Shown: piece by piece, positions 2,442-22,700 of the stretch
Position numbering within the stretch: position 1 is the first letter of the stretch
How the letters are laid out: each line of letters opens with the position of its first letter
Source of the DNA: Candidatus Sericytochromatia bacterium
GTDB lineage: Bacteria; Cyanobacteriota; Sericytochromatia; S15B-MN24; VGJW01
DNA length: 23,280 bases
Assembly: GCA_035285865.1 (NCBI GenBank)
Contig: JAYKHS010000013.1
Span: 1 to 23,280, forward strand
Direction: 5' to 3'
The notes under the pieces: model-generated
Database searches by the model: none
Told to the model about the DNA's origin: nothing
Seen by the model: only the letters and a program-made list of their open reading frames with translations
Translations under genes and position numbers: made by a program

Positions 2442-3443
2442 ATGGCGAACAGCGAGGGGAACCTGCCGTGGCAAGCTGAGCGCGGCATTCGTGGCCGTGC
2501 GCGAGGATGCCTCGCCGGTCTGCTCATCGGTGATGCCCTCGGCAGTCAGGTCGAGTTCGCAGACCCGCAGGCCATTCGCCGATGCTTCCCGGATGGTCTG
2601 CGCGATATGGGTCCCAGCAGGGTCTGGGGGACGCTTGCCGGCCAACCGACGGATGACGGCGAGATGGCCCTCGCGCTTGCGCGCGCGATGTGCGCGCTCG
2701 GAAGCTATCATCCCGACGAAGCCTTGGGCGCCTATCGCGCCTGGGCGCTGTCGCATCCCTTCGACATGGGCGGTACCGTTCGTGCGGGTCTCTTCGGGAC
2801 CCGGAACTTCCGCAGCGAGGCGAACGGTGCGTTGATGCGCGCGGCTCCGCTCGCCCTTCCAGGCGCAGGGGGCGATTTTGCCCGATGCGAGGACTGGGCC
2901 GAGCAGGATGCACTCCTGACCCATCCCGCGCCGACATGCCTCGCGGCCAACCGTCTCTACGTGGGGCTGATGGCGCGTGCCGTCGCGGGGGCATCCAGAG
3001 AGGCACTGGCGGCTCACACGCGGGCCGAGGCCACGGCCCCCGACTTTCCGCCCCGGCTTTCCGCGTGCGTCCTTGCCTCCTTCGAGGCCCCGCCCGAGGA
3101 CTACCTCACGCACGCAGGCCATGCCCTCGTGGCCTTGCAGCATGCCCTCTGGTGCGCGTGGCAGGAGCAAAGCGTGGAGGACCTGCTCGTCCGGACCATC
3201 ATGGAGGGTGGCGACAGCGACACCAATGCCGCGATCACCGGAGCCCTGCTGGGGGCGATGCACGGCATCGAGGCTTTCCCGTCCGCCTGGCTGGCGACGG
3301 TTCTGGCTTGTAGACCGGCAGCCGGACTGCCGGATGTGGAACAGCCACGACCGCCACGATATTGGCCCGGAGATTGCCTTGAACTCGCCGATGTCCTGAG
3401 TGGGTGGGCATCGGAGGCTGTCGTGCCAATTGCCCGAGCCTGA
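2442..3443 (+). CDS. ADP-ribosylglycohydrolase (DraG/ARH family)
   Basis: Motifs LAGLLIGDALG, QPTDDGEM, NGALMRAAP and GGDSDTNAAITGALLGA (metal-binding TDD and DxDT). Confidence 0.92.
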   Translation: MANSEGNLPWQAERGIRGRARGCLAGLLIGDALGSQVEFADPQAIRRCFPDGLRDMGPSRVWGTLAGQPTDDGEMALALARAMCALGSYHPDEALGAYRAWALSHPFDMGGTVRAGLFGTRNFRSEANGALMRAAPLALPGAGGDFARCEDWAEQDALLTHPAPTCLAANRLYVGLMARAVAGASREALAAHTRAEATAPDFPPRLSACVLASFEAPPEDYLTHAGHALVALQHALWCAWQEQSVEDLLVRTIMEGGDSDTNAAITGALLGAMHGIEAFPSAWLATVLACRPAAGLPDVEQPRPPRYWPGDCLELADVLSGWASEAVVPIARA

Positions 3444-3526: not shown

Positions 3527-3645
3527 TTTCCTGTTCCGACCCCATTGACGGGACCTGATCCGTCCGTTGTCCCTTGCGCAGCAGCCTGAGGGCCGGCCCC
3601 GTCCAGAAATATGCCTGTCTGCAGGTCTGTCCCCGAGGAGTTCTC

Positions 3646-5448
3646 ATGCGTCGTCGTCCCCCCCTGGCGCATCGGGAAGATTCCCGGTTCATCCCGAGCC
3701 TTCCTGCTTGGCCTTTGGCTGACGAGAACCCCGGACAGTGGGGCCATGCCGGCTCGCGTTTCCAGTTGGATGCCGACGGCCACGTCGTGATGACGGGCGG
3801 CCGCTACGCCATCAGTGGCAAGCCGCTCAAGAAGCTTCTGCCTTGGTTCCGCTCCATCATCGCCCTGCCGCTGGCGGCGGACGACATCATCCCGTCGACG
3901 TTTCCGCCTTCCGTCCCGGCTCCTGTCCAGAACCCGGCCTTCGTTGAGACGCTGCGTGCCCACCTCCCGGAGGAGGCCATCAGCCAGGACGGTTCAGTCC
4001 GCCTTCGCCACGGCCATGGGCATACGCAGGGTGAGCTCCATGACCTGCACCACGGCCAGGTGACCCGTGTCCCTGATCTGGTCGTCTTCCCGACGGAGGA
4101 AGAGCATGTGCTCGCGCTCGTCGATCTGGCGCGTGCCCATGACGTCGTGCTGGTTCCCTACGGTGGCGGCACCAATGTCACCGAGGCGCTCAAGTGCCGT
4201 CCTGAAGAACGCCGGATGATCGTTTCGGTGGACATGCGCCGCATGAACCGCATCCGCTGGGTCGATCGAGTGAACGGGATGGCCTGCATCGAGGCCGGGG
4301 CGACCGGGTCGCAGTTGGTTGAGCAGCTTGCGGAGCTGGGGCTGACGATGGGCCATGAGCCCGACAGCCTCGAGTTCTCCACGCTTGGCGGCTGGGTGGC
4401 AACCCACGCCAGCGGCATGAAGAAGAACCGCTACGGAAACATCGAGGACATCGTGCTCGATGTACGTGTCGCGACGGCTCAGGGCCTGCTGCACCGTCAG
4501 GCTGTCGCACCGCGGGAATCCGTCGGCATCGATCCCCGGTGGTGGCTCTTCGGCTCGGAGGGCAAGCTCGGCATCGTGACGGCGGCGATCGTCAAGGTGC
4601 ATCCGCTGCCCGAGGTTCAGGCCTACGACTCGGTGCTGCTGCCCGACTTCAGGGCAGGCATCGCCTTCATGCACGATCTGTCGCGCACGCGCCCCTGGCC
4701 TGCCAGCGCCCGATTGGTCGACAACGTGCAATTTCAATTCGCGATGGCCTTCAAGCCCGAGTCCCAGGGGCTGCACAAGCTGAAGTCCACGCTGTCGCGT
4801 CTGCTCGTGACCCGGGTGCTCGGTTACGCACCGGATCGGATGGTGGCGTGCACGCTGGTCTTCGAGGGCACGCGTGCCGAAGTCAAGGCCCAGCGCCAGA
4901 CCCTGGCCGTCCTTGCGAAGCGTCACTGCGGCATGTTGGCGGGGGGCGAGAACGGGGCCAGCGGTTATCAGTTGACCTTCGCCATCGCCTACATCCGGGA
5001 CTTCATGGCCCGCCACTGGGTCTTGGCCGAGTCCTTCGAGACCTCCGTGCCGTGGAGCAAGGTCGAATCCCTCTGTGACCGGGTCAAGGCCCGCATCCGC
5101 GACGAGCACGAGCGGCGCGGCCTGCCCGGCAAGCCGTTCGTGTCTTGCCGCGTGACGCAACTCTACGAGACGGGAGCTTGCGTCTACTTCTACTTCGCCT
5201 TTCACCACAAGGGCGTCGAGCGACCGATGGAGGTCTATGCGGCCATCGAGCATGCTGCGCGCGAGGAAATCCTGGCCTGCGGAGGCTCGCTCTCCCACCA
5301 TCACGGCATCGGCAAGCTGCGCGAGGGCTTCATGGCGGACATCCTTTCGCCGGCCGGCCTTGCGTGGCAGGAGCAGGTCAAGCGCGCGCTCGACCCCACG
5401 GACGTCTTCGGGTGCGGCAATCAGTCCGTCGAGGCGGCCCACGGATGA
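3646..5448 (+). CDS. agpS: Alkyldihydroxyacetonephosphate (alkylglycerone-phosphate) synthase, FAD-linked, eukaryote-like
   Basis: RBS GAGGAG. Motifs PYGGGTNV, GHEPDSLEFSTLGGWVATHASGMKKNRYGNIED, GSEGKLGIVT, PASARLVDNVQFQF, ESFETSVPW, CRVTQLYETGACVYFYFAF and GGSLSHHHGIGKLR. As I recall them, these closely match animal AGPS, including the catalytic His cluster, Tyr and Arg. Confidence 0.93.
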   Translation: MRRRPPLAHREDSRFIPSLPAWPLADENPGQWGHAGSRFQLDADGHVVMTGGRYAISGKPLKKLLPWFRSIIALPLAADDIIPSTFPPSVPAPVQNPAFVETLRAHLPEEAISQDGSVRLRHGHGHTQGELHDLHHGQVTRVPDLVVFPTEEEHVLALVDLARAHDVVLVPYGGGTNVTEALKCRPEERRMIVSVDMRRMNRIRWVDRVNGMACIEAGATGSQLVEQLAELGLTMGHEPDSLEFSTLGGWVATHASGMKKNRYGNIEDIVLDVRVATAQGLLHRQAVAPRESVGIDPRWWLFGSEGKLGIVTAAIVKVHPLPEVQAYDSVLLPDFRAGIAFMHDLSRTRPWPASARLVDNVQFQFAMAFKPESQGLHKLKSTLSRLLVTRVLGYAPDRMVACTLVFEGTRAEVKAQRQTLAVLAKRHCGMLAGGENGASGYQLTFAIAYIRDFMARHWVLAESFETSVPWSKVESLCDRVKARIRDEHERRGLPGKPFVSCRVTQLYETGACVYFYFAFHHKGVERPMEVYAAIEHAAREEILACGGSLSHHHGIGKLREGFMADILSPAGLAWQEQVKRALDPTDVFGCGNQSVEAAHG

Positions 5449-8078
5449 CGACTCGCGAACTTGGGCATCCGGCCCTCGAACTTCCCGGTGGCGTTCGTGT
5501 TGCCGAGGCCATGGAGGCCGTGCTGGTCACGGGGGCAACCGGATTCATCGGCAAGGTGCTCGTGGCGCGCCTCCTGCACGATGCGGAGGCACTCGGCCTG
5601 CAACGCCTGTACGTGCTGATTCGTCCCAAATCCGGTCATGCCCCGGCGGAGCGACTGCAGCGAGACCTGCTCTCATCGCCCTGCCTCGACGGACTATCAG
5701 CCGCGCAGTTGGCCAAGGTCCGCGTGGTCTCCGGTGATCCCACGTTGCCCGGCCTGGGCATGGAGCCCGAATTGCGGGAGACCCTGGGGCAGGACCTGAC
5801 CCATGTGCTGCACGTTGCGGCCTCGGTCCGGTTCGATCTGCCCTTGTCCGACGCCGCACTGCAAAACACGCACGCGACTCTGGCGATGCAGGACTGGGCT
5901 CGCGAGATGCCGCGTCTGCGCCGGCTCGTGCTGGTGTCCACGGCGTACGTCACGCCGTGGCGCGAGACGCCTGTCGTCGAAGCGTCGGTCACGGTATCGG
6001 AAGACCCCGAAGCCCTGTTCATCAGCATCGTGGCGGGCCGCGAGCGCGAGTCCGAGCACCTTGCGCGGACCGGGCATCCGAACACCTACACCTTCACCAA
6101 GGCCCTGGCGGAGCAGATTGCCCTGCGGCGACAGGGCGATCTGCCCATGGTCATCGTCCGGCCCAGCATCGTCTCGGCCTGCAGGCAGTTCCCCAGGGCC
6201 GGCTGGATCGACTCGGTGGCGGCCTTTGGCGCGTTCGCCTCGCTGGTCCTTGCCGGACGCCTGCGCGTGATCCTGGGCGGGCCGGGCGAACGCCTCGACA
6301 TCGTGCCTTGCGATGAGGTCGTGTCCCGGATCGTGGCTGCGGCAGCAGAACCCCTGGAGCCTGGCCAGGTGGCGATCCGTCATGCCGTCAGCGGCATCGA
6401 GCAGGGCCAGACCGTGGCCGAACTGGCGGGCGCGGTGCTGCGGCATGCCCAGGCCATGCCCCTTGGCGCCCGTCCTGAAGTGCGCTATCTCGGCCACCAT
6501 GGCTTGCGGGGCCGCCTCATGGAGTGGTGGCATCACCAGCTTCCGCTGACCCTGCAGATGCTGGTGCTCGGCGTGCTGGGCCAGAGCGAGGCCGTGTCCC
6601 AATTGCGCTGGCTCAGGGGTAATCTCGCCTCGATCAATGCGACCTTCCGGCACTTCACCACGCATACCTATCGCTTCGTGTCGACTTGGCCCATCGAGGC
6701 TCCCGTGCAGCACGATGCGTATGTCGGTGCTGCAATTGCGGGCCTGCGGCGTCATCTGGCGGCCGAGTGGTCGGGACACGCCGTCATCGCCGGATCCGAG
6801 GCCAAGGTCTGGTCCTCCGACTGGGCTTGGTTCCGCTCCCTCAGGGCTGGCCATCTGGTGCTGCGGCTTGCGGCTCTGCTGATGCTCAAGGTCCTGCGCA
6901 AGGCCTTCACCACGGTCTCGGTCGACGTGGATTCCTTCCGCCGTCACTTGGCGGATCTGCCCCCGGGAACGCCCATGGCCATCCTGCCGACGCATCGGAG
7001 TTTCCTGGACTTCGTGCTGGTTTCCTATCTGGGCGTCACGCGTCCTGAGCTGGGCATGCCCATCCCCCATGTGGCGGCGGCCGAGGAGTTCTCCAGAGTC
7101 CCGTTGCTGGGCTGGTTCTTCCGCAAGGCGCATGCCTTCTTCATTCGCAGGGGGCAGGGGCGTGCGGACGAACGCTTGAACGACACGGTCCGTGGCCTCG
7201 TGGACGAAGGCAAGGCCATCGAGTTCTATCCCGAGGGGCAGCGCAGCCGCACGCGGCAGTTCCTGCCGCCGCGTACCGGCATGATCCGCAGCCTGCAGGC
7301 GACGGGACGCGATATCCTCCTTGTTCCGGTAGCCATCAGTTTCGAACGCCTCGCCGAGGAGGATGCCCTTGCGCTCGAGCGCGAGGGGCATCCCCGGCCA
7401 CCCTTCACTCTCGGACCCCTGCTGCGCTGGACCCGTCGGATGTGGCGCGGAGAGGTACGCCTCGGGCGGGTCCACATGGCTTGTGCGGAGCCGCTGGTCC
7501 TGCGACCGGCCGATGATGCCCGGGCTGCGGCCGAGGCGGTCGTGGCGCGGTTGCGCAAGGCCACCGTCGTGACCCGCTGGCATCTCGAGACGTTCCTCGA
7601 CCACCATCCCGTGCCGGGCATCTCGGTGGACGACATCGTCCGGTGGATCGAGGCGCGCGGGGGGCGGGTACTGACCTCCGGCACACCGGAGCAGATGCGC
7701 GTTTCACGATTGGTGGCCGATTCGCTGGTCCATCAGTGGCTGCACCACTTCGTGGCCGACGCCCGTCTGCTGCATCCCGAGGATCCTTTCCTCGCGTCAC
7801 TCGATGCGCTGTGGGCCACGGACACGGCACAAGCCGAGGCGCGGACTGCAGCGGCCGCACTCAGGGACCCGGCCTGCCAGCGTTTCGTCTCGGTCGTGTA
7901 CGGTCCGCTGCTGCTGGATGCCCACCGCACGATTCAGTCGATGTCCGTATTCGCCTCGCCCCGGGTCCATCACGCCGTATCGCTCATGGCCGACCTGCCC
8001 GGGGCCAGCTTTGCGAATGTCGAACTGGCGATGGCTTTCCAGGGTGCCCGTCCGGGGCCGGCAAGGCCTGTCCGTTGA
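5445..8078 (+). CDS. Bifunctional fatty acyl-CoA reductase / glycerone-phosphate (or glycerol-3-phosphate) acyltransferase fusion (FARAT-like)
   Basis: N-terminal FAR motifs: LVTGATGFIGKVL, YVLIRPK, HVAASVRFD, VSTAYV, HPNTYTFTKALAE, IVRPSIV, GWID. C-terminal PlsB/GNPAT-type acyltransferase motifs: ILPTHRSFLDF (HxxxxD), AFFIRR, EFYPEGQRSRT, VPVAISFE. The start overlaps the AGPS stop (ATGA). Confidence 0.9.
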   Translation: MTTRELGHPALELPGGVRVAEAMEAVLVTGATGFIGKVLVARLLHDAEALGLQRLYVLIRPKSGHAPAERLQRDLLSSPCLDGLSAAQLAKVRVVSGDPTLPGLGMEPELRETLGQDLTHVLHVAASVRFDLPLSDAALQNTHATLAMQDWAREMPRLRRLVLVSTAYVTPWRETPVVEASVTVSEDPEALFISIVAGRERESEHLARTGHPNTYTFTKALAEQIALRRQGDLPMVIVRPSIVSACRQFPRAGWIDSVAAFGAFASLVLAGRLRVILGGPGERLDIVPCDEVVSRIVAAAAEPLEPGQVAIRHAVSGIEQGQTVAELAGAVLRHAQAMPLGARPEVRYLGHHGLRGRLMEWWHHQLPLTLQMLVLGVLGQSEAVSQLRWLRGNLASINATFRHFTTHTYRFVSTWPIEAPVQHDAYVGAAIAGLRRHLAAEWSGHAVIAGSEAKVWSSDWAWFRSLRAGHLVLRLAALLMLKVLRKAFTTVSVDVDSFRRHLADLPPGTPMAILPTHRSFLDFVLVSYLGVTRPELGMPIPHVAAAEEFSRVPLLGWFFRKAHAFFIRRGQGRADERLNDTVRGLVDEGKAIEFYPEGQRSRTRQFLPPRTGMIRSLQATGRDILLVPVAISFERLAEEDALALEREGHPRPPFTLGPLLRWTRRMWRGEVRLGRVHMACAEPLVLRPADDARAAAEAVVARLRKATVVTRWHLETFLDHHPVPGISVDDIVRWIEARGGRVLTSGTPEQMRVSRLVADSLVHQWLHHFVADARLLHPEDPFLASLDALWATDTAQAEARTAAAALRDPACQRFVSVVYGPLLLDAHRTIQSMSVFASPRVHHAVSLMADLPGASFANVELAMAFQGARPGPARPVR

Positions 8079-9127
8079 CGAGCCCCGCTTGGCTCGTCAC
8101 CGGGGGAAGCGGATTTCTCGGCCGGCTGGTGCTGCCGGCGCTTGCGTCGCGTTCACCTGTCCTTGCCTTGACCCGCAAGCCCGAGATGGCCGAATCGATC
8201 GAGGGCGTGGTCTGGATCGGCGGTGACCTCGACGATCCGGCCGCGTGGCTGACGTCGCTCGACCAACGACCCCTTGCCGGCATCCTCCACATGGGGGCCA
8301 ACGTGGCCCATACGCGGAAGGGTGCCGATGCTGCCGTCCGTGCGCAGGTCCGCGCCGTGGCCGACTTGGCTGGCCGCGCGCGCGCGCGCGGCATCCGGTT
8401 CGTTTTCGTATCCTCGTCGGGGACGGTGGGCTGCTCCCGCGACCCCTTCGCGGCTCCGGACGACGACGCCCCGCACGCATGGGAGTGTGTCCGCGATTGG
8501 CCTTACTACAGGGGCAAGGTCGAGGCCGAACGTGAAGCCTTGCGCCTGCTGGGGGACCGCCGTGGCCAACTCGTGATGTTGCGTCCCCCGATGCTGCTGG
8601 GTCCCGGCGACACGCTCGGACGGTCCACGTCCACCCTGCGCCGATACCTGGGGGGGCGACTGCCCTTTCTCATCCGGGGTGGCATTCACGTCGCGGACGT
8701 CCGGGACGTCGCAGGGGCCGTCGTGGCCGCCTGTACGGTGGCCGATCCCGCGCAGGCCTACAACCTGCCGGGCCACGCCGAGGCGTTGCAGCCTTTCCTG
8801 CAGCGCTGCGCGCGCTTGTGCGGGGTGCCGGCACCGGCGCGACATGTGCCGTGGCTGGTGGCGTGGCTGGCAGCGCATGTGAGCGCCCGGGTCGCGGATC
8901 GGACCGGCAGGCATCCGTGGCTGCCGGATCCCGTGGTCATCGAGATGGGACGGCACCACTGGGGCCTCGCCGGTTCACGTGCTCCGCGGGATCTGGGCTA
9001 TCATCCGAGACCGGTCGACGAGACCTTGGCCGAGACCCTGGACTGGCTTCGCCGGGACATGGCCCTCGATGCACCCGGACGCATTCCCGACGCTTCCACC
9101 CCGACCGCAGACAGGACGACGGCATGA
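8075..9127 (+). CDS. Extended SDR (NAD-dependent epimerase/dehydratase family); candidate acyl/alkyl-DHAP reductase
   Basis: Motifs WLVTGGSGFLG, FVFVSSSG, YYRGK (YxxxK), LRPPMLLGPGD and DVRDVA. The TTG start overlaps the upstream stop (TTGA). The specific function is inferred from context. Confidence 0.85.
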   Translation: MTSPAWLVTGGSGFLGRLVLPALASRSPVLALTRKPEMAESIEGVVWIGGDLDDPAAWLTSLDQRPLAGILHMGANVAHTRKGADAAVRAQVRAVADLAGRARARGIRFVFVSSSGTVGCSRDPFAAPDDDAPHAWECVRDWPYYRGKVEAEREALRLLGDRRGQLVMLRPPMLLGPGDTLGRSTSTLRRYLGGRLPFLIRGGIHVADVRDVAGAVVAACTVADPAQAYNLPGHAEALQPFLQRCARLCGVPAPARHVPWLVAWLAAHVSARVADRTGRHPWLPDPVVIEMGRHHWGLAGSRAPRDLGYHPRPVDETLAETLDWLRRDMALDAPGRIPDASTPTADRTTA

Positions 9128-11944: not shown

Positions 11945-11962
11945 CGCCAAGTCACCAAGAAG

Positions 11963-12035
<73 letters not shown>

Positions 12036-13234: not shown

Positions 13235-14539
13235 TCAGCGTTGCGCGAAGGCAGCGTCGATGGCGCGGCCGGCGTCGATGCGACCGTGGCCGTACTCGGC
13301 GCTGAAACCCAGGCCAACGGGGATGGCCGTTCGCTCGAGGTGGGCCTTCACGGTCGCGGCGGACCAGTCCCTCCGGGTGTCGGCGACGAGCGCGGCCAGT
13401 CCCGCCGCATAGGGCGTGGCCATCGAGGTGCCGGACTTCTGGCCATAACCGGTTTCCTTGCTGTTGTTCGGGAAGGTCGGCAGCAGCGAGAGGATGCCCT
13501 GGCCAGGGGCCACCAGCGAAATCCACGTGCCGAAGCTCGAGAAGCTGGCCTTGCGGTCCTGTTCGTCCGTGGCGCCAACAGCGAGGACACCCGGCATGGC
13601 CGCCGGGTACAGGATGTCGTTACGGCCGCTGTTGCCCATGGCAGCGACCACGAGCACGTCCTTGCCCTGGGCGTAGGCGATGGCGTCGCGCAGCAGCGGC
13701 GACAGCGTCGGGGACCCGAGGCTCATGCTGAGGACATGGGCTCTGGCGTCGACGGCGTGCACGATACCGGCCGACACCGAGGTGGCATCGCCGTAGCCGT
13801 AGTCCGAAACGACCTTCTCGGCCAGCAGGTGGATGCGCGGGGCAACGCCCACGATCCCTTGCCGATTGTTGGCCGTGGCCCCCGCGATCCCTGCGGCGTG
13901 GGTGCCGTGGCTGTCCCCGTCGACCGGGTTGTCGGTCTTCTTGAGCCAATCCCTGCCGAGGATGACCCGGCTGTGTCCGCCATCGTCGCGGAGGTCCGGA
14001 TGGGCCGGATCGATCCCGGTGTCGAGAATGGCCAGCAGGGTCCGCGGGCTGCCCTCCGTGCGGGCGTGCGCCTTCGCGAGGCCGATGCGGGCGACGGCCC
14101 ACTGGCGCGGTGCCAGAGGGTCATTGTAGCTCGTCTCGATCTCGGGACCGCCTGCGGCGCGAACAGGGACAGGACGGGTCATCGGCGTCGAGAGGCACGC
14201 CTCGGCAACCTCGGGCGCTTCCCCGAGTGCCGTCAGGGCCGAACGGGCGGTCTTGTCCCCCGTCGGCCGCAGGACCTTCCAGCCCAGTTTGCCCAGCGTG
14301 TCGTGCCAGCCCGGTTCCTCCACCAACCCTCGCTCCGACATCAGGCGCGCGAGGGCAGCCCGTGCGCTCGATGAGCGCAGTTTCACGAGGACGCGTCTTG
14401 CCGCCTGGGCTTCGAGCACCTGGTCCTCGGCGTGCGGATCGAAACGGGGATGCGGATTGGGCGTGGCCTCCGTTCCGCAGGCTGTGAGGACGATGCCGAG
14501 CAGGGCGGTGGCGGGGAAACGAAGACGCGTGCGGGGCAT
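13235..14539 (-). CDS. S8 subtilisin/thermitase-like serine protease, lipoprotein
   Basis: Triad motifs ILDTGID, HGTHAAG and SGTSMATP, oxyanion motif AAMGN, and lipobox LTAC after MPRTRLRF. Confidence 0.93.
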   Translation of the reverse strand: MPRTRLRFPATALLGIVLTACGTEATPNPHPRFDPHAEDQVLEAQAARRVLVKLRSSSARAALARLMSERGLVEEPGWHDTLGKLGWKVLRPTGDKTARSALTALGEAPEVAEACLSTPMTRPVPVRAAGGPEIETSYNDPLAPRQWAVARIGLAKAHARTEGSPRTLLAILDTGIDPAHPDLRDDGGHSRVILGRDWLKKTDNPVDGDSHGTHAAGIAGATANNRQGIVGVAPRIHLLAEKVVSDYGYGDATSVSAGIVHAVDARAHVLSMSLGSPTLSPLLRDAIAYAQGKDVLVVAAMGNSGRNDILYPAAMPGVLAVGATDEQDRKASFSSFGTWISLVAPGQGILSLLPTFPNNSKETGYGQKSGTSMATPYAAGLAALVADTRRDWSAATVKAHLERTAIPVGLGFSAEYGHGRIDAGRAIDAAFAQR

Positions 14540-14677
14540 GGTCGGCAAGAACTCCCATCGAGGCTGTGTGACCAGCCTGGTGATGGCACCTCCCACGCAC
14601 CTCCCAGTGTTAATGGAGTGTTGGATCTAGCGCATAGGTCCGTGAAGAGCCTGATGGTTCGGCAGGGGGGTGTCGCC

Positions 14678-15799
14678 ATGCAGACCAGCACCGGCAAGGT
14701 GGAATCGATAACGCTGTCATCTTCGGTTCGTCAGCCGGCCGATGCGCGGGGGACGTCCCGTGGCGCGGAAAGTCCGGAGGCCAGCCGCGCGGCCACGCGC
14801 AGGGACAGGATGTCCGTGCGTCCCGGACAGGTTGTCGTGACCGCGGGGGACTCGCTGTCCGTGCTTGCCAGGCGCCACGGTGTGCCGCTGGACGACTTGC
14901 TGCGCCTGAATCCCGGGCTGACGACGCCGGTCGATGGGGGACGCCCCCGGGCTGCCGACGGGCGTTGGATCTATCCCGGTGACGTCGTGCAGTTGAGGCC
15001 GGCTGGGGCAAAGGGTCTGCCCAAGCTCCCGGAGCCAGTCAAGCCGGACCCAGCCGTTCATCCCGCGAGGCCCCGTGCTGTTGAGGTCGTGGGCAAGCGC
15101 GCGGCGTCCGGTGCCCCCTCTTCGCCTGCACCCAAGGCAGCGGTCCCTGCTGCGGAGGACCCAGGACGCGCCGAGGTGCGCTCTGGCCGGAAACGGGTTT
15201 CGCCTGGTGAGCCTTTCGTCCAGGCCACGCCGCTGGCGGAGGGTGGTCGGACCAGCCGGCCTCGCCCGGACGCTGCGGTCAGAAAGCCCGAAGGCCAGCC
15301 TGGCGGCAGCGTCGCCGATCAGCAACCGGTGACTCGGAAGCCTGCGGTCCCGCAGCCTGCACCGGAGCAGAAGTCCGTGACCCAGGCCAAGCCGCTTGTT
15401 CAGCCGAAGCCCGCCGCCCCGGTGGCGCCAAAGCCAGTTCCGGCTGTCGATCGGTCCGGTGTCCCCGAACTGATCTCCCGCATTCCCAAGGGCACGGGGA
15501 CGGTGCTCGGCATGGTGTCCGTCACGATTGCCCGCATCGGCAACGGTCTGAAGATCCAGGCGGGCAGCTTCGGGACCTTCCTGTTCCAGAAGACAGGAAA
15601 GGGTTGGTGCATTACCGGGGCGGGGCAGGAGCCCCTTGCCGTCGACAAGGTCCGACAGGCACGGGATGGTTCGGGCAATACGGTCTTCAGCCTCGAGTTC
15701 CCGAAGGGCTCGCCCGTGCCCTTCAACCCGGCGGTCGTCTCGGTCGCGCCGGATGGTCGCTCCTTCTCGATGGCCGGCTACTCGATCACGATGGAATGA
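14678..15799 (+). CDS. LysM domain protein with Pro/Ala/Lys-rich linker and unknown beta-rich C-terminal domain
   Basis: VVVTAGDSLSVLARRHGVPLDDLLRLNPGL...IYPGDVVQL. A G-rich RBS precedes the ATG at 14678; the start is uncertain (alternative 14654). Confidence 0.8.
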   Translation: MQTSTGKVESITLSSSVRQPADARGTSRGAESPEASRAATRRDRMSVRPGQVVVTAGDSLSVLARRHGVPLDDLLRLNPGLTTPVDGGRPRAADGRWIYPGDVVQLRPAGAKGLPKLPEPVKPDPAVHPARPRAVEVVGKRAASGAPSSPAPKAAVPAAEDPGRAEVRSGRKRVSPGEPFVQATPLAEGGRTSRPRPDAAVRKPEGQPGGSVADQQPVTRKPAVPQPAPEQKSVTQAKPLVQPKPAAPVAPKPVPAVDRSGVPELISRIPKGTGTVLGMVSVTIARIGNGLKIQAGSFGTFLFQKTGKGWCITGAGQEPLAVDKVRQARDGSGNTVFSLEFPKGSPVPFNPAVVSVAPDGRSFSMAGYSITME

Positions 15800-18904: not shown

Positions 18905-20158
18905 TCACGGCGTTGCCAGGCCTGCAGCGAGTTCGAGCAGGTAGCGGGCGGCCGGTTCATTCTCCCGCCAATACTGGGGCACCTTGGCGAAGGGTGGCGT
19001 GAAGCCGTCGTCCCAGCTGCCCACTTCCGCGGTGAAGGCCATCGTCCCTTGCGTCCCGAAGGCCCAATCCGAAATGTCGCCGCTGGTCAGATACAGATCC
19101 TTGCTTTGGATTCCCCTGTAGCCGGTAAGCTGCGCGAGCTTCCGGCCGATGCCGGGAAGGCGGGGATCGGGGGCGGGGGCTTCGGTATGCCCCCAAGGCC
19201 AGAGGATCAGGTTGCTGTAGGAGTGGTAACTCATCATGTACCTGGCATTGCGCCCTCCGATGAGCCGCATCAGGGCCTGGGTTTCAGGCTCCGATCCACC
19301 TGCGGCTCCCCTGAAGGTGGGACTCAGAGGGTCCTTGGACGCTCCGACCTCACCCCAATGGAACGGGAAATTCCTGTTGAGATCGACACCGGGGAAGGCG
19401 TTGCCGTCGAGGCCGAGCAGCCCCATTCCCCCTTGGCTGTCGTTCATGTTCTTGCGGCGGTTCTCGCCGGCGACGACCTTGGCATGGCCATCCGGATTGC
19501 TCATCGGGACCACCCACGTCTCGCAGCGGCCCGTGATGTCGGCAAGCGCCGGATCGGTCTTGCGCCCCTCGAGCAGCATGCGGATGACACGGATGCCCAT
19601 TTCCGGCGTCACGATCTCGCGGGCGTGCTGCTCGGCGACGAACACCACCACAGGCAAATCGGCAGCGGCAGCCGGGCCGATGCGCATCGCGAGGATCGGG
19701 CGGTTGGCCCGACCGCGGCTGGTCTCCCAGGAAGGCCCGATGTTGTGGATCGAAGCGACATCCCCGTGGGCTGAGGCAAGTGCCTGCATGGTCTGGACTA
19801 CGCCGGCATAGCCCATGTAGCTCGAGTCGATGCCGGGGTTGGCTGCGGTGCGGACTTCCTCGGCGACGGACAGGCCAAGGGCCGTAAGGCGTGCCCGGTC
19901 GCCGGGCGTGCCCGTGACGCGGGCCCGGTGCCCCACCGGGTCCTGGGCTTCGATCTCGAGACCGAGCCGGTCGACCTTGCCGAGCAGGGCAGGCGTCGTG
20001 CCGGTCACGGTGTACCGGACGAGGCTGGCGTCGGCGTTGCTGCCGGTCTGGCCTTGGCTGACCCTGCCCAGTCCGGGCAACCCGAGTTGTCCGCAGCCAG
20101 CAAGCACCAGAGCGGTGGCGAGCGCCAGCCCCTTGTCGAAGGAATGCGTGTGCGCCAT
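18905..20158 (-). CDS. M14 zinc carboxypeptidase (carboxypeptidase T-like), lipoprotein
   Basis: Motifs QHARE (HxxE), NPDG, RRKN, GVDLNRNF, SEPET, SYHSY and SDW...E, with lipobox LAGC. Confidence 0.92.
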   Translation of the reverse strand: MAHTHSFDKGLALATALVLAGCGQLGLPGLGRVSQGQTGSNADASLVRYTVTGTTPALLGKVDRLGLEIEAQDPVGHRARVTGTPGDRARLTALGLSVAEEVRTAANPGIDSSYMGYAGVVQTMQALASAHGDVASIHNIGPSWETSRGRANRPILAMRIGPAAAADLPVVVFVAEQHAREIVTPEMGIRVIRMLLEGRKTDPALADITGRCETWVVPMSNPDGHAKVVAGENRRKNMNDSQGGMGLLGLDGNAFPGVDLNRNFPFHWGEVGASKDPLSPTFRGAAGGSEPETQALMRLIGGRNARYMMSYHSYSNLILWPWGHTEAPAPDPRLPGIGRKLAQLTGYRGIQSKDLYLTSGDISDWAFGTQGTMAFTAEVGSWDDGFTPPFAKVPQYWRENEPAARYLLELAAGLATP

Positions 20159-20400
20159 CAGTTGCGGCCCCGACGAAGCGTCTGCCCGTCGAGCCAACGC
20201 TCGGCGAGGGTGGCGAGGCTCAGCATCACGAGGGCGTAGCCGAAACCCACGAGGCTCAGGCCCTCGAGCGTGTGGTCGTAGAGGGTCCAGAGGCCGCCGG
20301 CAATGCTGACGATGCCAAAGGCGACCATGGCTTGCAACGCCGGGCCGGGGAGCATCATCGCCGGCGCGCGTCGCGCCGCTTCACGAATCTGGGTGGGCAT
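20158..20400 (-). CDS. Small two-TM membrane protein
   Basis: Two hydrophobic helices. Its TGA overlaps the ATG of the carboxypeptidase (TGATG). Confidence 0.55.
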   Translation of the reverse strand: MPTQIREAARRAPAMMLPGPALQAMVAFGIVSIAGGLWTLYDHTLEGLSLVGFGYALVMLSLATLAERWLDGQTLRRGRN

Positions 20401-20612: not shown

Positions 20613-21284
20613 ATGGCACATCATCGGGTGCATGGCGGCGGGGGGCACGCCCACCATCACGGCGGTCACGCCCGGACGCACGCGCACGCCACGGGTGGCC
20701 ATCACGGCGCCGCCCACGCCGCGAGGGCCGCGGGCGATCATGCGGCGAAGGAAGCCGCACGAAAGGCGGCCGAGCGCGAGATGGCCAAGCAAGCGGCCAA
20801 GAAGGATGCGGAGCGCCAGGCTGCGAAGCAGGATGCGGACAAAGTAACGAAGCCCGGCGTGCAGGCGTCCGGCATGAAGCTTCAGGACGAGGGGGCCGGA
20901 AAGGTCAAGGCCGGCGGCAGTCCCCGGGATCGGGCCCGTGCCGCCATCCAGCAGGCAGCCGACCTTGTCGTTGCCAGTGGTGTCCCTGCCAGCAAGATCA
21001 ACGTGGATGCTCTGGTGAAGGTAGCCGGCAAGGAGTCGACCTGGAATCCCAGGGCCATCAACCGATGGGACAGCAATGCCAAGGCGGGTCATCCCTCGAA
21101 GGGCCTGCTGCAGACCATCGATTCGACCTTCCAGCGCTACAAGCTGCCCGGCCGCAACGACATCTTCAATCCCGTGGACAACGCCGCTGCTGCCATTCGC
21201 TATGCCGTCGATCGGTATGGTTCGGTGGACAACCTTCCGGGTGTCCGCAGCATGGCGCGCGGCGGCCAGTACAAGGGTTACTGA
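20613..21284 (+). CDS. Lytic transglycosylase (SLT-domain) protein with His-rich N-terminus
   Basis: GGAGGA RBS. KESTWNPRAINRWDSNA (catalytic Glu), SKGLLQTIDSTF and DIFNPVDNAAAAIRYAVDRYG. Confidence 0.9.
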   Translation: MAHHRVHGGGGHAHHHGGHARTHAHATGGHHGAAHAARAAGDHAAKEAARKAAEREMAKQAAKKDAERQAAKQDADKVTKPGVQASGMKLQDEGAGKVKAGGSPRDRARAAIQQAADLVVASGVPASKINVDALVKVAGKESTWNPRAINRWDSNAKAGHPSKGLLQTIDSTFQRYKLPGRNDIFNPVDNAAAAIRYAVDRYGSVDNLPGVRSMARGGQYKGY

Positions 21285-21335: not shown

Positions 21336-22616
21336 ATGGCGGCCATGGCCATAGGGACTGCAGAAGGCAAGTATGGTGCGGGAGGCTGGGGCCTGCTGGG
21401 GCTGCTCCATGCGTGGTTCACCCAGTTGGCTCGGCCCGTGCCTCAGGAAGTGGCGGTAAGGGCCTTCCTCGCCGACGTGGCCGAGATGCTCGCTGCGGCG
21501 GAGGCCGAGGTCTGGGCGCGGGGCTCCCACGGCGGCTGGCGTCGCCTCGCTGCGCTGAGTGATGGCGATCTGTTGTCGCCGGATGTCCTGCAAGAGGCCA
21601 TGGGCGCGGCGGTCGGTACCGCGATGGAGGAGTCAGGGCCCCGGCTCTGGCTGGGATGCCGCTGCCCCGGGCCCGGTGGGGAAGGCCGTGAGCGCGGGCG
21701 ATGGCTGGGCACGCCGCTCGTGACGGATCGCGACCTGCATGGCGTGATGGTGTTTCGACGTGGGGCGGGACAGGCAGCCTTCCCGATGGAACTGGTGCCC
21801 CTTGTGGCCGTTGCTGCGCGGCCGCTGGCGTTAGTGCTGGATCACCAGCGCCTCAAGGACGCCTTCGTGGCTACGGTGTCGCATGAACTCAGGACCCCGC
21901 TCGCGACTCTTCGCGGGTTTAGCGAGTTGCTGGCATCCGCGCCGATGGCCTACGCCGATCAGCAACCGATGTTGCAGGTCATGCTGCGCGAAACCGAGCG
22001 CCTGGGACGCATGATCGAGGACTTGCTCGACCTGACGCGCATGCAGGCGGGTGCGCGGTCGATCCGGCTGCGACGTTGTGTGGCGAGGCCCCTGTTGGAG
22101 CGGGCCCTGGCGCCGTGGATGCAGCATCCGGAGCACAGGGGCCGCCTGGCCTTGGCCGTTACGCCCGAAGACCTGCGCGTGCGGGTCGATTCCGACCTCT
22201 TCATCCGGATCGTGGTGAATCTGGTGGGCAACGCTTTCCGGCATGCGTCACCGGCCGTGCGGATCGAGGTGGCGATGCGTCGGGAACCCTCGGGCTGGAT
22301 GCTCGAAGTCACGGATCACGGCGCCGGCATGGACCCGAAGGTCCGCCAGAGGCTCGGGGAGGCATTCGTGCAAGGGGGGGGCGCGCCGTCCGGTGGGCTC
22401 GGACTGGGGTTGGCCCTTACGCGGGGGATGCTGGATCTGCACGGGGCAACCCTTGGGGTGGATGAGCCGGATGGTGGGGGCACGAGGTTCCTGTGTCGCT
22501 TTCCGGCCACGGCGCGTCTTGTCAGGGCCCGTGGTAGGCGGCATGCGGGAACGGGTCAGCAGTCTGCCGCTGGTTCCGACCGGGCTGTCCTTGACCCCGC
22601 CTCCGGAGGGGCTTAG
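21336..22616 (+). CDS. Sensor histidine kinase (GAF-like, HisKA, HATPase_c), apparently cytoplasmic
   Basis: H-box VSHELRTPL, N-box NLVGNAFRH, G1 DHGAGM and G2 GGLGLGL. The start codon is uncertain. Confidence 0.88.
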   Translation: MAAMAIGTAEGKYGAGGWGLLGLLHAWFTQLARPVPQEVAVRAFLADVAEMLAAAEAEVWARGSHGGWRRLAALSDGDLLSPDVLQEAMGAAVGTAMEESGPRLWLGCRCPGPGGEGRERGRWLGTPLVTDRDLHGVMVFRRGAGQAAFPMELVPLVAVAARPLALVLDHQRLKDAFVATVSHELRTPLATLRGFSELLASAPMAYADQQPMLQVMLRETERLGRMIEDLLDLTRMQAGARSIRLRRCVARPLLERALAPWMQHPEHRGRLALAVTPEDLRVRVDSDLFIRIVVNLVGNAFRHASPAVRIEVAMRREPSGWMLEVTDHGAGMDPKVRQRLGEAFVQGGGAPSGGLGLGLALTRGMLDLHGATLGVDEPDGGGTRFLCRFPATARLVRARGRRHAGTGQQSAAGSDRAVLDPASGGA

Positions 22617-22627: not shown

Positions 22628-22700
22628 GAGACAGTAGCTCAGTCGGTAGAGCATCTGACTTTTAATCAGAGGGTCCTGGGTTCGAGCCCCAGCTGTCTCA
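22628..22700 (+). tRNA. tRNA-Lys (anticodon UUU), CCA not encoded
   Basis: Acceptor stem GAGACAG/CTGTCTC, anticodon arm TCTGA-CTTTTAA-TCAGA and T-arm CTGGG-TTCGAGC-CCCAG. Confidence 0.97.

Follow-up and report, generated by a model that had tools for sequence, protein, structure and literature searches.

A compact operon of three genes on the 23,280-nucleotide contig JAYKHS010000013.1 of a Candidatus Sericytochromatia bacterium (assembly GCA_035285865.1) was analyzed, and is read as an ortholog of MXAN_1676-1675-1674 of Myxococcus xanthus, serving the synthesis of 1-O-alkyl glycerolipids as an accessory operon. From sequence, this reading was given a probability of about 0.62. The window is the entire contig, from a genome of 2.8 Mb that is 83% complete and whose assembly has no 16S rRNA. 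Gene 1 encodes alkyl-dihydroxyacetone phosphate synthase (AGPS), gene 2 a fusion of a fatty acyl reductase and an acyltransferase (FAR-AT) and gene 3 an extended short-chain dehydrogenase/reductase (SDR). Genes 1 and 2 are joined by an ATGA overlap at 5445, and gene 3, which starts with TTG, overlaps gene 2 via TTGA; the three overlap-coupled genes described in an earlier note on this DNA, made from the letters alone, were confirmed from open reading frames (ORFs) and Pfam domains. For comparison, the best 80 of at least 555 AGPS-related stretches in GTDB were taken as the set of AGPS loci. The order AGPS, FAR-AT, extended SDR was found at 34 of these 80 loci, in several phyla, and this recurrence argues against chance. 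The operon itself is already known, and Sericytochromatia adds a host, not a mechanism; what is new is the placement of gene 3 as sister to ElbE-like proteins, the swaps in the third slot of the operon, and the acyltransferase branch shared with diatom polyproteins.

In the proposed pathway, the FAR domain would, judged by its family, turn fatty acyl-CoA or acyl-ACP (acyl carrier protein) into fatty alcohol with NADPH, and the acyltransferase of gene 2 would, judged by context, acylate dihydroxyacetone phosphate (DHAP). AGPS would then replace the acyl group by the alcohol via a flavin adduct, giving alkyl-DHAP, a step that is near certain from sequence, and gene 3 would reduce the C2 ketone to yield 1-O-alkyl-glycerol-3-phosphate. 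Host PlsC-like, PssA/Psd and PgsA-like enzymes could complete plasmanyl-phosphatidylethanolamine (PE) or -phosphatidylglycerol (PG), and ordinary ester lipids would be made by a separate PlsY/GpsA route. The genome holds PlsY, GpsA, three further PF01553 genes, six AMP-binding enzymes and COX1, as well as Psd adjoining a PF01066 gene and a second PF01066 gene.

Gene 1 is, to near certainty from its sequence, a true AGPS carrying out the acyl-to-alkyl exchange, as the earlier note had proposed. It scored 517 bits (E 6.7e-154) against guinea-pig AGPS (4bby), with about 43% identity counted from the search alignment, and 293 bits against Dictyostelium AGPS (2uuu). Residues R356, R451, Y514 and H551-553 were invariant in 80 aligned sequences; H551-553 is taken to be the AGPS His triad, with the role presumed for it. 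R356, R451 and Y514 align to R352, R447 and Y508 of Dictyostelium AGPS (constant 3-residue numbering offset), which are named as catalytic in the available part of a review (PMC3509576), and also align with sites altered in the PDB variants 4bc7 and 4bca. AGPS trees were built with FastTree (234 rows) and, in a quick run, IQ-TREE (62 rows). Both placed gene 1 in one clade of 100% support together with AGPS of nematodes, apicomplexans, oomycetes and heteroloboseans, and inside it in a bacterial subclade (97-99% support). The named single-domain eukaryotic AGPS fell outside a 98%-supported group containing the bacterial operon clade in the IQ-TREE tree, and no animal AGPS was seen nesting in the operon clade in either tree. 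If gene 1 were instead an oxidase of the GlcD/D-lactate dehydrogenase type, the cluster would make wax esters or ester lipids. GlcD was indeed the top NCBIfam match (128 bits, cut-off 568), but D-lactate dehydrogenase scored only 86 bits against the 517 of AGPS, and the AGPS catalytic residues are present. A grouping of gene 1 with GlcD or D-lactate dehydrogenases had been named beforehand as the outcome that would speak against AGPS; gene 1 grouped with AGPS at 100% support. The oxidase identity was rejected on bit scores and tree placement, and is regarded as very improbable.

Gene 2 was likewise correctly read as a FAR-acyltransferase fusion (PF07993 plus PF01553, intact motifs). In 47 aligned sequences, TGxxGxxG (residues 29-36), S165 and Y215-xxx-K219 were invariant in the FAR domain, and H517-xxxx-D522, R569, E597, R600 and R602 in the acyltransferase. 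The AlphaFold model (pLDDT 86.9) had rice FAR DPW (7eoz) and human GPAT1 (8e4y) as top folds; no Pfam match to the FAR C-terminal Sterile domain PF03015 was found in gene 2, and the alignment of the model with DPW spans 480 columns (target TM 0.72). The GNPAT/PlsB (PTHR12563) blocks, under the definitions we take to apply, are present as HxxxxD, FxxR, EGxRSR and the block IV proline. No GPAT_C (PF19277) match was found by Pfam in this acyltransferase; a separate PF19277 protein was present in all 41 genomes in a sample of the phylum to which a Myxococcales locus belongs. By phmmer, gene 2 scored 63 bits to PlsB 9vuq, 45 to human GPAT1 and 99-204 to acyltransferase domains of eukaryotic polyproteins. 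A quick acyltransferase tree of 69 rows, from which animal GNPAT, protist FARAT and M. xanthus sequences were left out, grouped gene 2 with other operon acyltransferases and the polyprotein domains (91%), and this branch was sister to 15 PlsB-type proteins (99%). From these sequences, the operon acyltransferase is a branch separate from PlsB. The label 'eukaryote-type', applied to the operon by the earlier note, suits AGPS; for the acyltransferase, the nearest eukaryotic relatives found were diatom polyproteins, animal GNPAT being outside the comparison. Stand-alone FAR or operon-type acyltransferase genes were also observed in class genomes without animal-type AGPS (L226, L227 and L228-L230, in G018, G019, G038, G046 and G036), and a second, stand-alone acyltransferase in several operon-carrying genomes.

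The acceptor of the gene 2 acyltransferase would be DHAP, rather than glycerol-3-phosphate (G3P), on the strength of its linkage and fusion to AGPS. Long AGPS proteins were collected by a gene 1 search of 50%-identity representatives, and 26 of the 150 listed, picked by length, were scanned. Acyltransferase, FAR and AGPS were fused in 17 of the 26, which ties the product of the acyltransferase to AGPS. In addition, a gammaproteobacterial protein was observed in which a PlsC-like acyltransferase is fused to AGPS (P0125).

Gene 3 carries TGxxGxxG, R34 and Y144-xxx-K148, all invariant in 35 sequences, and R34 suggests NADPH as the cofactor. Its nearest solved relatives by profile and fold were Gox2253, cinnamoyl-CoA reductases (CCR) and dihydroflavonol reductases (DFR), ahead of sugar epimerases. 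Pfam gave no match in gene 3 to the classical-SDR domain PF00106, the Ayr1/DHRS7B type, and PF01370 instead; Ayr1 and DHRS7B are both assumed to be classical PF00106 SDRs. Both are called SDRs in the available text of PMC13256971. Gene 3 may, nevertheless, function as an acyl/alkyl-DHAP reductase (EC 1.1.1.101) without belonging to the classical SDRs. Of the complete chemistry envisaged by the earlier note, the AGPS and FAR-AT identities thus stood, while DHAP specificity and the alkyl-DHAP reductase activity of gene 3, which lacks the classical domain, are still predictions.

The gene after AGPS or FAR-AT at the 80 loci was an extended SDR (36), a classical SDR (14), a DegT aminotransferase (5), none of these (13) or cut by a contig end (12); Pfam was run on three of the five aminotransferases and four of the 14 classical SDRs, the others being assigned by motif and similarity. 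The slot never directly held two enzyme kinds. One of the 36 extended SDRs is fused, as FAR-AT-SDR, in a Nitrospira protein of 1,170 aa (L066:9836-13348). All 14 classical-SDR loci were without FAR-AT (13 Acidobacteriota, 1 Leptospiraceae), and AGPS-classical SDR fusions were found (P0062, P0089); AGPS plus a classical SDR without FAR-AT, mostly in Acidobacteriota, is a candidate route to ether lipids or lipid salvage. Since extended SDRs, classical SDRs and DegT enzymes all act on carbonyls and replace one another, the slot is read as acting on the C2 ketone of alkyl-DHAP, and it is somewhat better than an even bet that this is what gene 3 reduces.

Of the 19 best gene 3 matches in the Myxococcales-phylum sample, 17 sit after an operon-type acyltransferase. 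Fourteen regions with lower-scoring homologs were examined (12 chosen from 82 matches in that phylum and 2 in the host class), and in 10 the homolog comes right after an ElbD-like gene. ElbD-like genes had FAR and acyltransferase domains by Pfam in all 7 scanned, with a full AMP-binding domain in 5, and the gene 3 group and the ElbD-adjacent SDR group were sisters in the tree (91% each). Gene 3 is, by sequence and position, MXAN_1674/ElbE-like: an extended SDR after an ether-lipid acyltransferase fusion and sister to the ElbD-adjacent SDRs. The myxobacterial elbB-E cluster thus resembles the operon in its FAR, acyltransferase and sister SDR, and differs in that ElbD has AMP-binding and carrier domains and a PlsC-like acyltransferase, and in lacking AGPS. 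Inactivation of elbE lowers ether lipids (PMC9131029, in the portion available). That MXAN_1674/ElbE-like extended SDRs are the bacterial alkyl-DHAP reductase, of a different class from Ayr1/DHRS7B, is put forward tentatively, as part of a joint reading taken up below; no published account of a bacterial alkyl-DHAP reductase was found in the literature listings. ElbD-like genes with an ElbE-like SDR were also seen in two genomes of the host class (L223 in G027:C94 and L224 in G004:C338), with the AMP-binding domain weak or missing; G004 also has PF10520.

Several observations weigh against alkyl glycerolipid synthesis with gene 3 as ketone reductase. Thirteen of the 68 uncut loci have no extended SDR, classical SDR or DegT in the slot, and the independent swaps are few, 13 of the 14 classical-SDR loci being Acidobacteriota and the five DegT loci a single clade. 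The acyltransferase motifs cannot discriminate a DHAP from a G3P acceptor, and in M. xanthus the operon yields only a minor share of the ether lipids (PMC9131029, available portion). The closest solved relatives of gene 3 are aldehyde or thioester reductases, and it is not of the PF00106 type. Such relatives suit a different division of labor, in which the FAR domain carries reduction only as far as the fatty aldehyde, gene 3 reduces the aldehyde to the alcohol, and the alkyl-DHAP ketone is reduced by an enzyme elsewhere, leaving the operon incomplete. Gox2253, which with CCR was the top structural match, is presumably an aliphatic-aldehyde reductase. FAR-gene 3 fusions without acyltransferase or AGPS (P0321-P0323) fit aldehyde reduction, the triple fusion of L066 favors it too, and so does the partnership of ElbE with a system that has no AGPS in its cluster, where the FAR of the adjoining ElbD has been proposed as aldehyde-forming (PMC9131029, same portion). 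On the other hand, gene 3 homologs directly follow AGPS without FAR at two loci (L017, L024), the same FAR family occurs without a gene 3 homolog in DegT operons and diatom polyproteins, the FAR domain most closely resembles a plant FAR in fold, and relatives of the DegT enzymes use keto-sugars and inososes, substrates more like the ketone of DHAP than like a fatty aldehyde. Aldehyde reduction by gene 3 is accordingly held to be rather unlikely.

The end product raises a separate question. CarF/PEDS1 (PF10520) was found neither in the host genome (83% complete) nor in the 7 further genomes of its family, among them two congeners that are 94-98% complete; this was the outcome of the search for a CarF/TMEM189 desaturase that the earlier note had advised. 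Across the class, the identical search detected PF10520 in 14 of 47 genomes, and 7 of these 14 carry the operon. Because no CarF/PEDS1 was found in the host or its family, the products are likely alkyl ethers and not plasmalogens, and the lineage probably stops there. No ElbD-like FAR and no PF09989 were found in the genome at the same completeness. An operon that makes alkylglycerol or alkyldiacylglycerol as a neutral or signalling ether lipid, or remodels lipids of prey or detritus, with little bulk membrane phospholipid, would match the minor role of the operon and the ether storage lipid TG-1 in M. xanthus (PMC9131029, in part), the patchy occurrence in 15/47 class genomes and the intact housekeeping ester route. 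It is nonetheless considered quite improbable: searches of the genome turned up no other ether route, and PF10520, an enzyme family known to act on an alkyl-PE, is present in 7 of the 15 class genomes that have the operon.

Among the 17 polyproteins with FAR, acyltransferase and AGPS, 12 add DegT and 9 have the order ACBP (acyl-CoA-binding protein)-DegT-FAR-AT-AGPS; named examples are the diatom proteins P0132 (Thalassiosira profunda, KAL9182467.1) and P0139 (Nitzschia inconspicua, KAG7374222.1). A profile of the five bacterial DegT aminotransferases matched 15 polyproteins, the pyridoxal phosphate (PLP) Asp and Lys motifs being visible in most, and no gene 3-like domain was found in the polyproteins. 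They have the FAR-AT family and AGPS clade in common with the operon, and differ in being a single chain of about 2,200-2,700 aa, with a PLP aminotransferase replacing the SDR and an extra acyl-CoA-binding domain. In bacteria, DegT loci carry the aminotransferase plus a PlsC-like gene, and all five form one Gemmatimonadaceae clade. RtxA offers a precedent for the transamination of DHAP to serinol phosphate (PMC3222319, available part). Taken jointly, and tentatively, at less than even odds, these variants would form a modular alkyl-DHAP factory in which the last gene sets the fate of the C2 ketone (reduction by an SDR or amination by DegT), with diatoms as a second eukaryotic branch sharing the bacterial acyltransferase family. 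As part of the same tentative reading, DegT variants would yield 1-O-alkyl-serinol-phosphate, and its N-acylation would give an ether-amide lipid resembling ceramide; the four-gene Gemmatimonadaceae-clade operon predicts an N-acyl amino-ether lipid. Against amination of the ketone, this DegT subfamily occurs apart from ether operons (AGPS/FAR-AT nearby at 0/81 further loci) and in other fusions, and DegT could instead aminate a fatty aldehyde. A dedication of the subfamily to ether operons was unsupported: AGPS/FAR-AT was nearby at 0/80 metagenome loci (about 7 close relatives, several contigs short) and at 0/1 match in a 251-genome Gemmatimonadota sample. No published amino-ether lipid pathway of this kind was found, the subscription literature being thinly covered, and a PF01041/PF00887 search of 15 supplement files of PMC13012113 also gave no account. 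The same subfamily was seen fused to a CDP-alcohol phosphatidyltransferase or FAD_binding_4 domain (P0308, P0309-P0314). The P. tricornutum entry in Dataset S5 of PMC13012113 is a 554-aa AGPS alone, perhaps a cut gene model.

The earlier note had doubted a myxobacterial host, and rightly: among the matches listed, the closest three loci (AGPS identity 93, 92 and 80%) are Sericytochromatia or Tanganyikabacteria with identical neighbors. Its view that the route is rare in bacteria and known mainly from M. xanthus did not hold, given the number of GTDB stretches above. Animal-type AGPS (≥54% identity) was present in 15 of 47 genomes of the host class, in 5 of 7 families (13 with the three genes on one contig, 2 split at contig ends), and in 29 of 201 genomes sampled from the phylum of the Myxococcales locus; the best 80 loci include Gemmatimonadota, Acidobacteriota, Spirochaetota, Gammaproteobacteria and Nitrospira. 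Multiple acquisitions within Sericytochromatia were considered, AGPS falling in three places of the trees, but an approximately unbiased (AU) test does not reject a single clade (p = 0.19). Many class genomes also carry another, distant AGPS-like family, with 28-36% identity, which lies outside the animal-type clade (L095-L107, L109, L110).

In the available portion of PMC9131029, MXAN_1676 is AGPS, MXAN_1675 a FAR plus GNPAT-like protein and MXAN_1674 a member of the NAD-dependent epimerase/dehydratase family, and loss of MXAN_1676 lowers M. xanthus ether lipids. The M. xanthus operon also appears in the Fig. 1B legend of PMC13012113 (PNAS 2026), and in the datasets of that study the M. xanthus_A counterparts of genes 1 and 2 have 631 and 868 aa. 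The M. xanthus-like cluster proposed from the letters was recognized here too, as co-oriented genes for AGPS, a FAR-AT fusion and an epimerase/dehydratase-family protein. The two operons, compared by domains, order and length, agree in their three genes, gene order, domains and sizes (600/877 aa here), and in AGPS identity to the mammalian enzyme (about 43% here, about 42% reported there); they differ in the Sericytochromatia host, in which no ElbD or CarF was found and the operon would hence be the sole ether route, ending at alkyl ethers. The mammalian FAR1/GNPAT/AGPS/DHRS7B pathway is alike in AGPS clade, catalytic residues and inferred chemistry; here, however, FAR and acyltransferase are fused, the acyltransferase is without GPAT_C (PF19277) and the candidate reductase is an extended SDR. 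Protist FARAT (Tetrahymena, Dictyostelium; PMC13012113 and PMC13256971, in part) likewise has an N-terminal FAR and a C-terminal acyltransferase feeding AGPS, but TtFARAT has 1,140 aa against 877 here, and the comparison is one of architecture.

According to the parts of PMC13012113 available, 73 bacterial genomes have all four enzymes, 12 of them beyond Myxococcota. Locus L002 is represented in its Datasets S4 and S5 by VGJW01000009.1_112 and _111, close relatives of the first two operon proteins; these datasets also contain other Sericytochromatia FAR-AT, AGPS and PEDS1 entries, with no discussion of them in the main text as available. FAR-AT fusions of M. xanthus and Sericytochromatia stand in its FAR table (S4) and are absent from the GNPAT table (S2) and tree files among those available; in S2, the 13 Myxococcaceae rows are all PF19277 plus PF01553, with no FAR domain listed. 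A wide distribution of agps homologs is described in the accessible parts of PMC11868695, bioRxiv 10.64898/2026.06.23.733905 and PMC13159169. No published account of Sericytochromatia ether lipids was found in the literature listings.

Features of the window and of the compared loci and proteins
Feature	Position or identifier	Strand	Remarks
Gene 1, alkyl-DHAP synthase (AGPS), 600 aa	3646..5448	+	MXAN_1676 ortholog; PF01565+PF02913; ATG start
Gene 2, FAR-acyltransferase fusion, 877 aa	5445..8078	+	MXAN_1675 ortholog; PF07993 (199 bits) + PF01553 (80 bits)
Gene 2 FAR domain core, residues 28-294	5526..6326	+	Conserved reductase motifs
Gene 2 acyltransferase core, residues 504-632	6954..7340	+	Subfamily distinct from PlsB; conserved motifs
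Gene 3, extended SDR (DFR/CCR-like carbonyl reductase), 350 aa	8075..9127	+	MXAN_1674-like; PF01370; candidate alkyl-DHAP reductase
APC amino-acid permease, 553 aa	9124..10785	+	PF13520; ATGA overlap with gene 3 at 9124
ADP-ribosylglycohydrolase	2442..3443	+	PF03747; upstream neighbor only
EF-hand protein, 290 aa	10856-11728	-	Repeated EF-hand motifs
tRNA-Ala(GGC)	11962-12035	-	
Lipoprotein-like ORF, 352 aa	12109-13167	-	Proline-rich tandem repeat at end; without Pfam match
Subtilase S8	13235-14596	-	
LysM protein	14681-15799	+	
TPR-BTAD transcriptional regulator, 1,006 aa	15871-18891	+	
M14 carboxypeptidase	18905-20197	-	
SLT transglycosylase	20613-21284	+	His/Ala-rich start
Histidine kinase	21336-22616	+	
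tRNA-Lys(TTT)	22628-22700	+	
DegT four-gene variant (AGPS, FAR-AT, DegT, PlsC-like)	L005:11839-13814; L044:4008-5995; L056:11920-13910; L057:11827-13817; L077:11911-13940		
Classical-SDR loci	L016, L019, L020, L029, L032, L037, L043, L052, L059, L063, L065, L067, L069, L070		
ACBP-DegT-FAR-AT-AGPS polyproteins	P0132, P0138, P0139, P0141, P0142, P0145, P0146, P0159, P0165		2,200-2,460 aa

A GAGGAG lies at 3635-3640, upstream of the gene 1 ATG. Third-position GC (GC3) of the operon genes is 0.80-0.83, compared with 0.82 for the adjoining permease, and GC matches the genome. A promoter and terminator scan gave no promoter and 2 terminator-like sites, which does not exceed the yield from shuffled sequence. 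As to its extent, the earlier note was right about the three genes and overlooked the fourth ATGA-coupled gene, the APC permease. A part for the permease in the pathway was rejected: it lies downstream of the operon at 3 of the 80 loci and also occurs in 2 operon-less family genomes, and it is probably a genus-specific neighbor outside ether-lipid synthesis. The ADP-ribosylglycohydrolase was found upstream at 2 of the 80 loci (L001, L002).

The comparative results outweigh the operon itself, in that they give a testable reaction for MXAN_1674 and ElbE. In the published GNPAT table (PMC13012113, available files), the myxobacterial rows include PlsB-type proteins, and because the operon acyltransferase forms a branch separate from these, the FARAT tree of horizontal gene transfer (HGT) would be worth redoing with it included. 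Should the DegT reading be true, an amino-ether lipid pathway would be predicted in diatoms. The genome offers a clean test case, the operon seeming to be its sole ether route, with no ElbD or CarF found. If the reading of the operon is true, ether lipids would occur in a non-photosynthetic sister class of the cyanobacteria, which would bear on the interpretation of alkyl-ether biomarkers.

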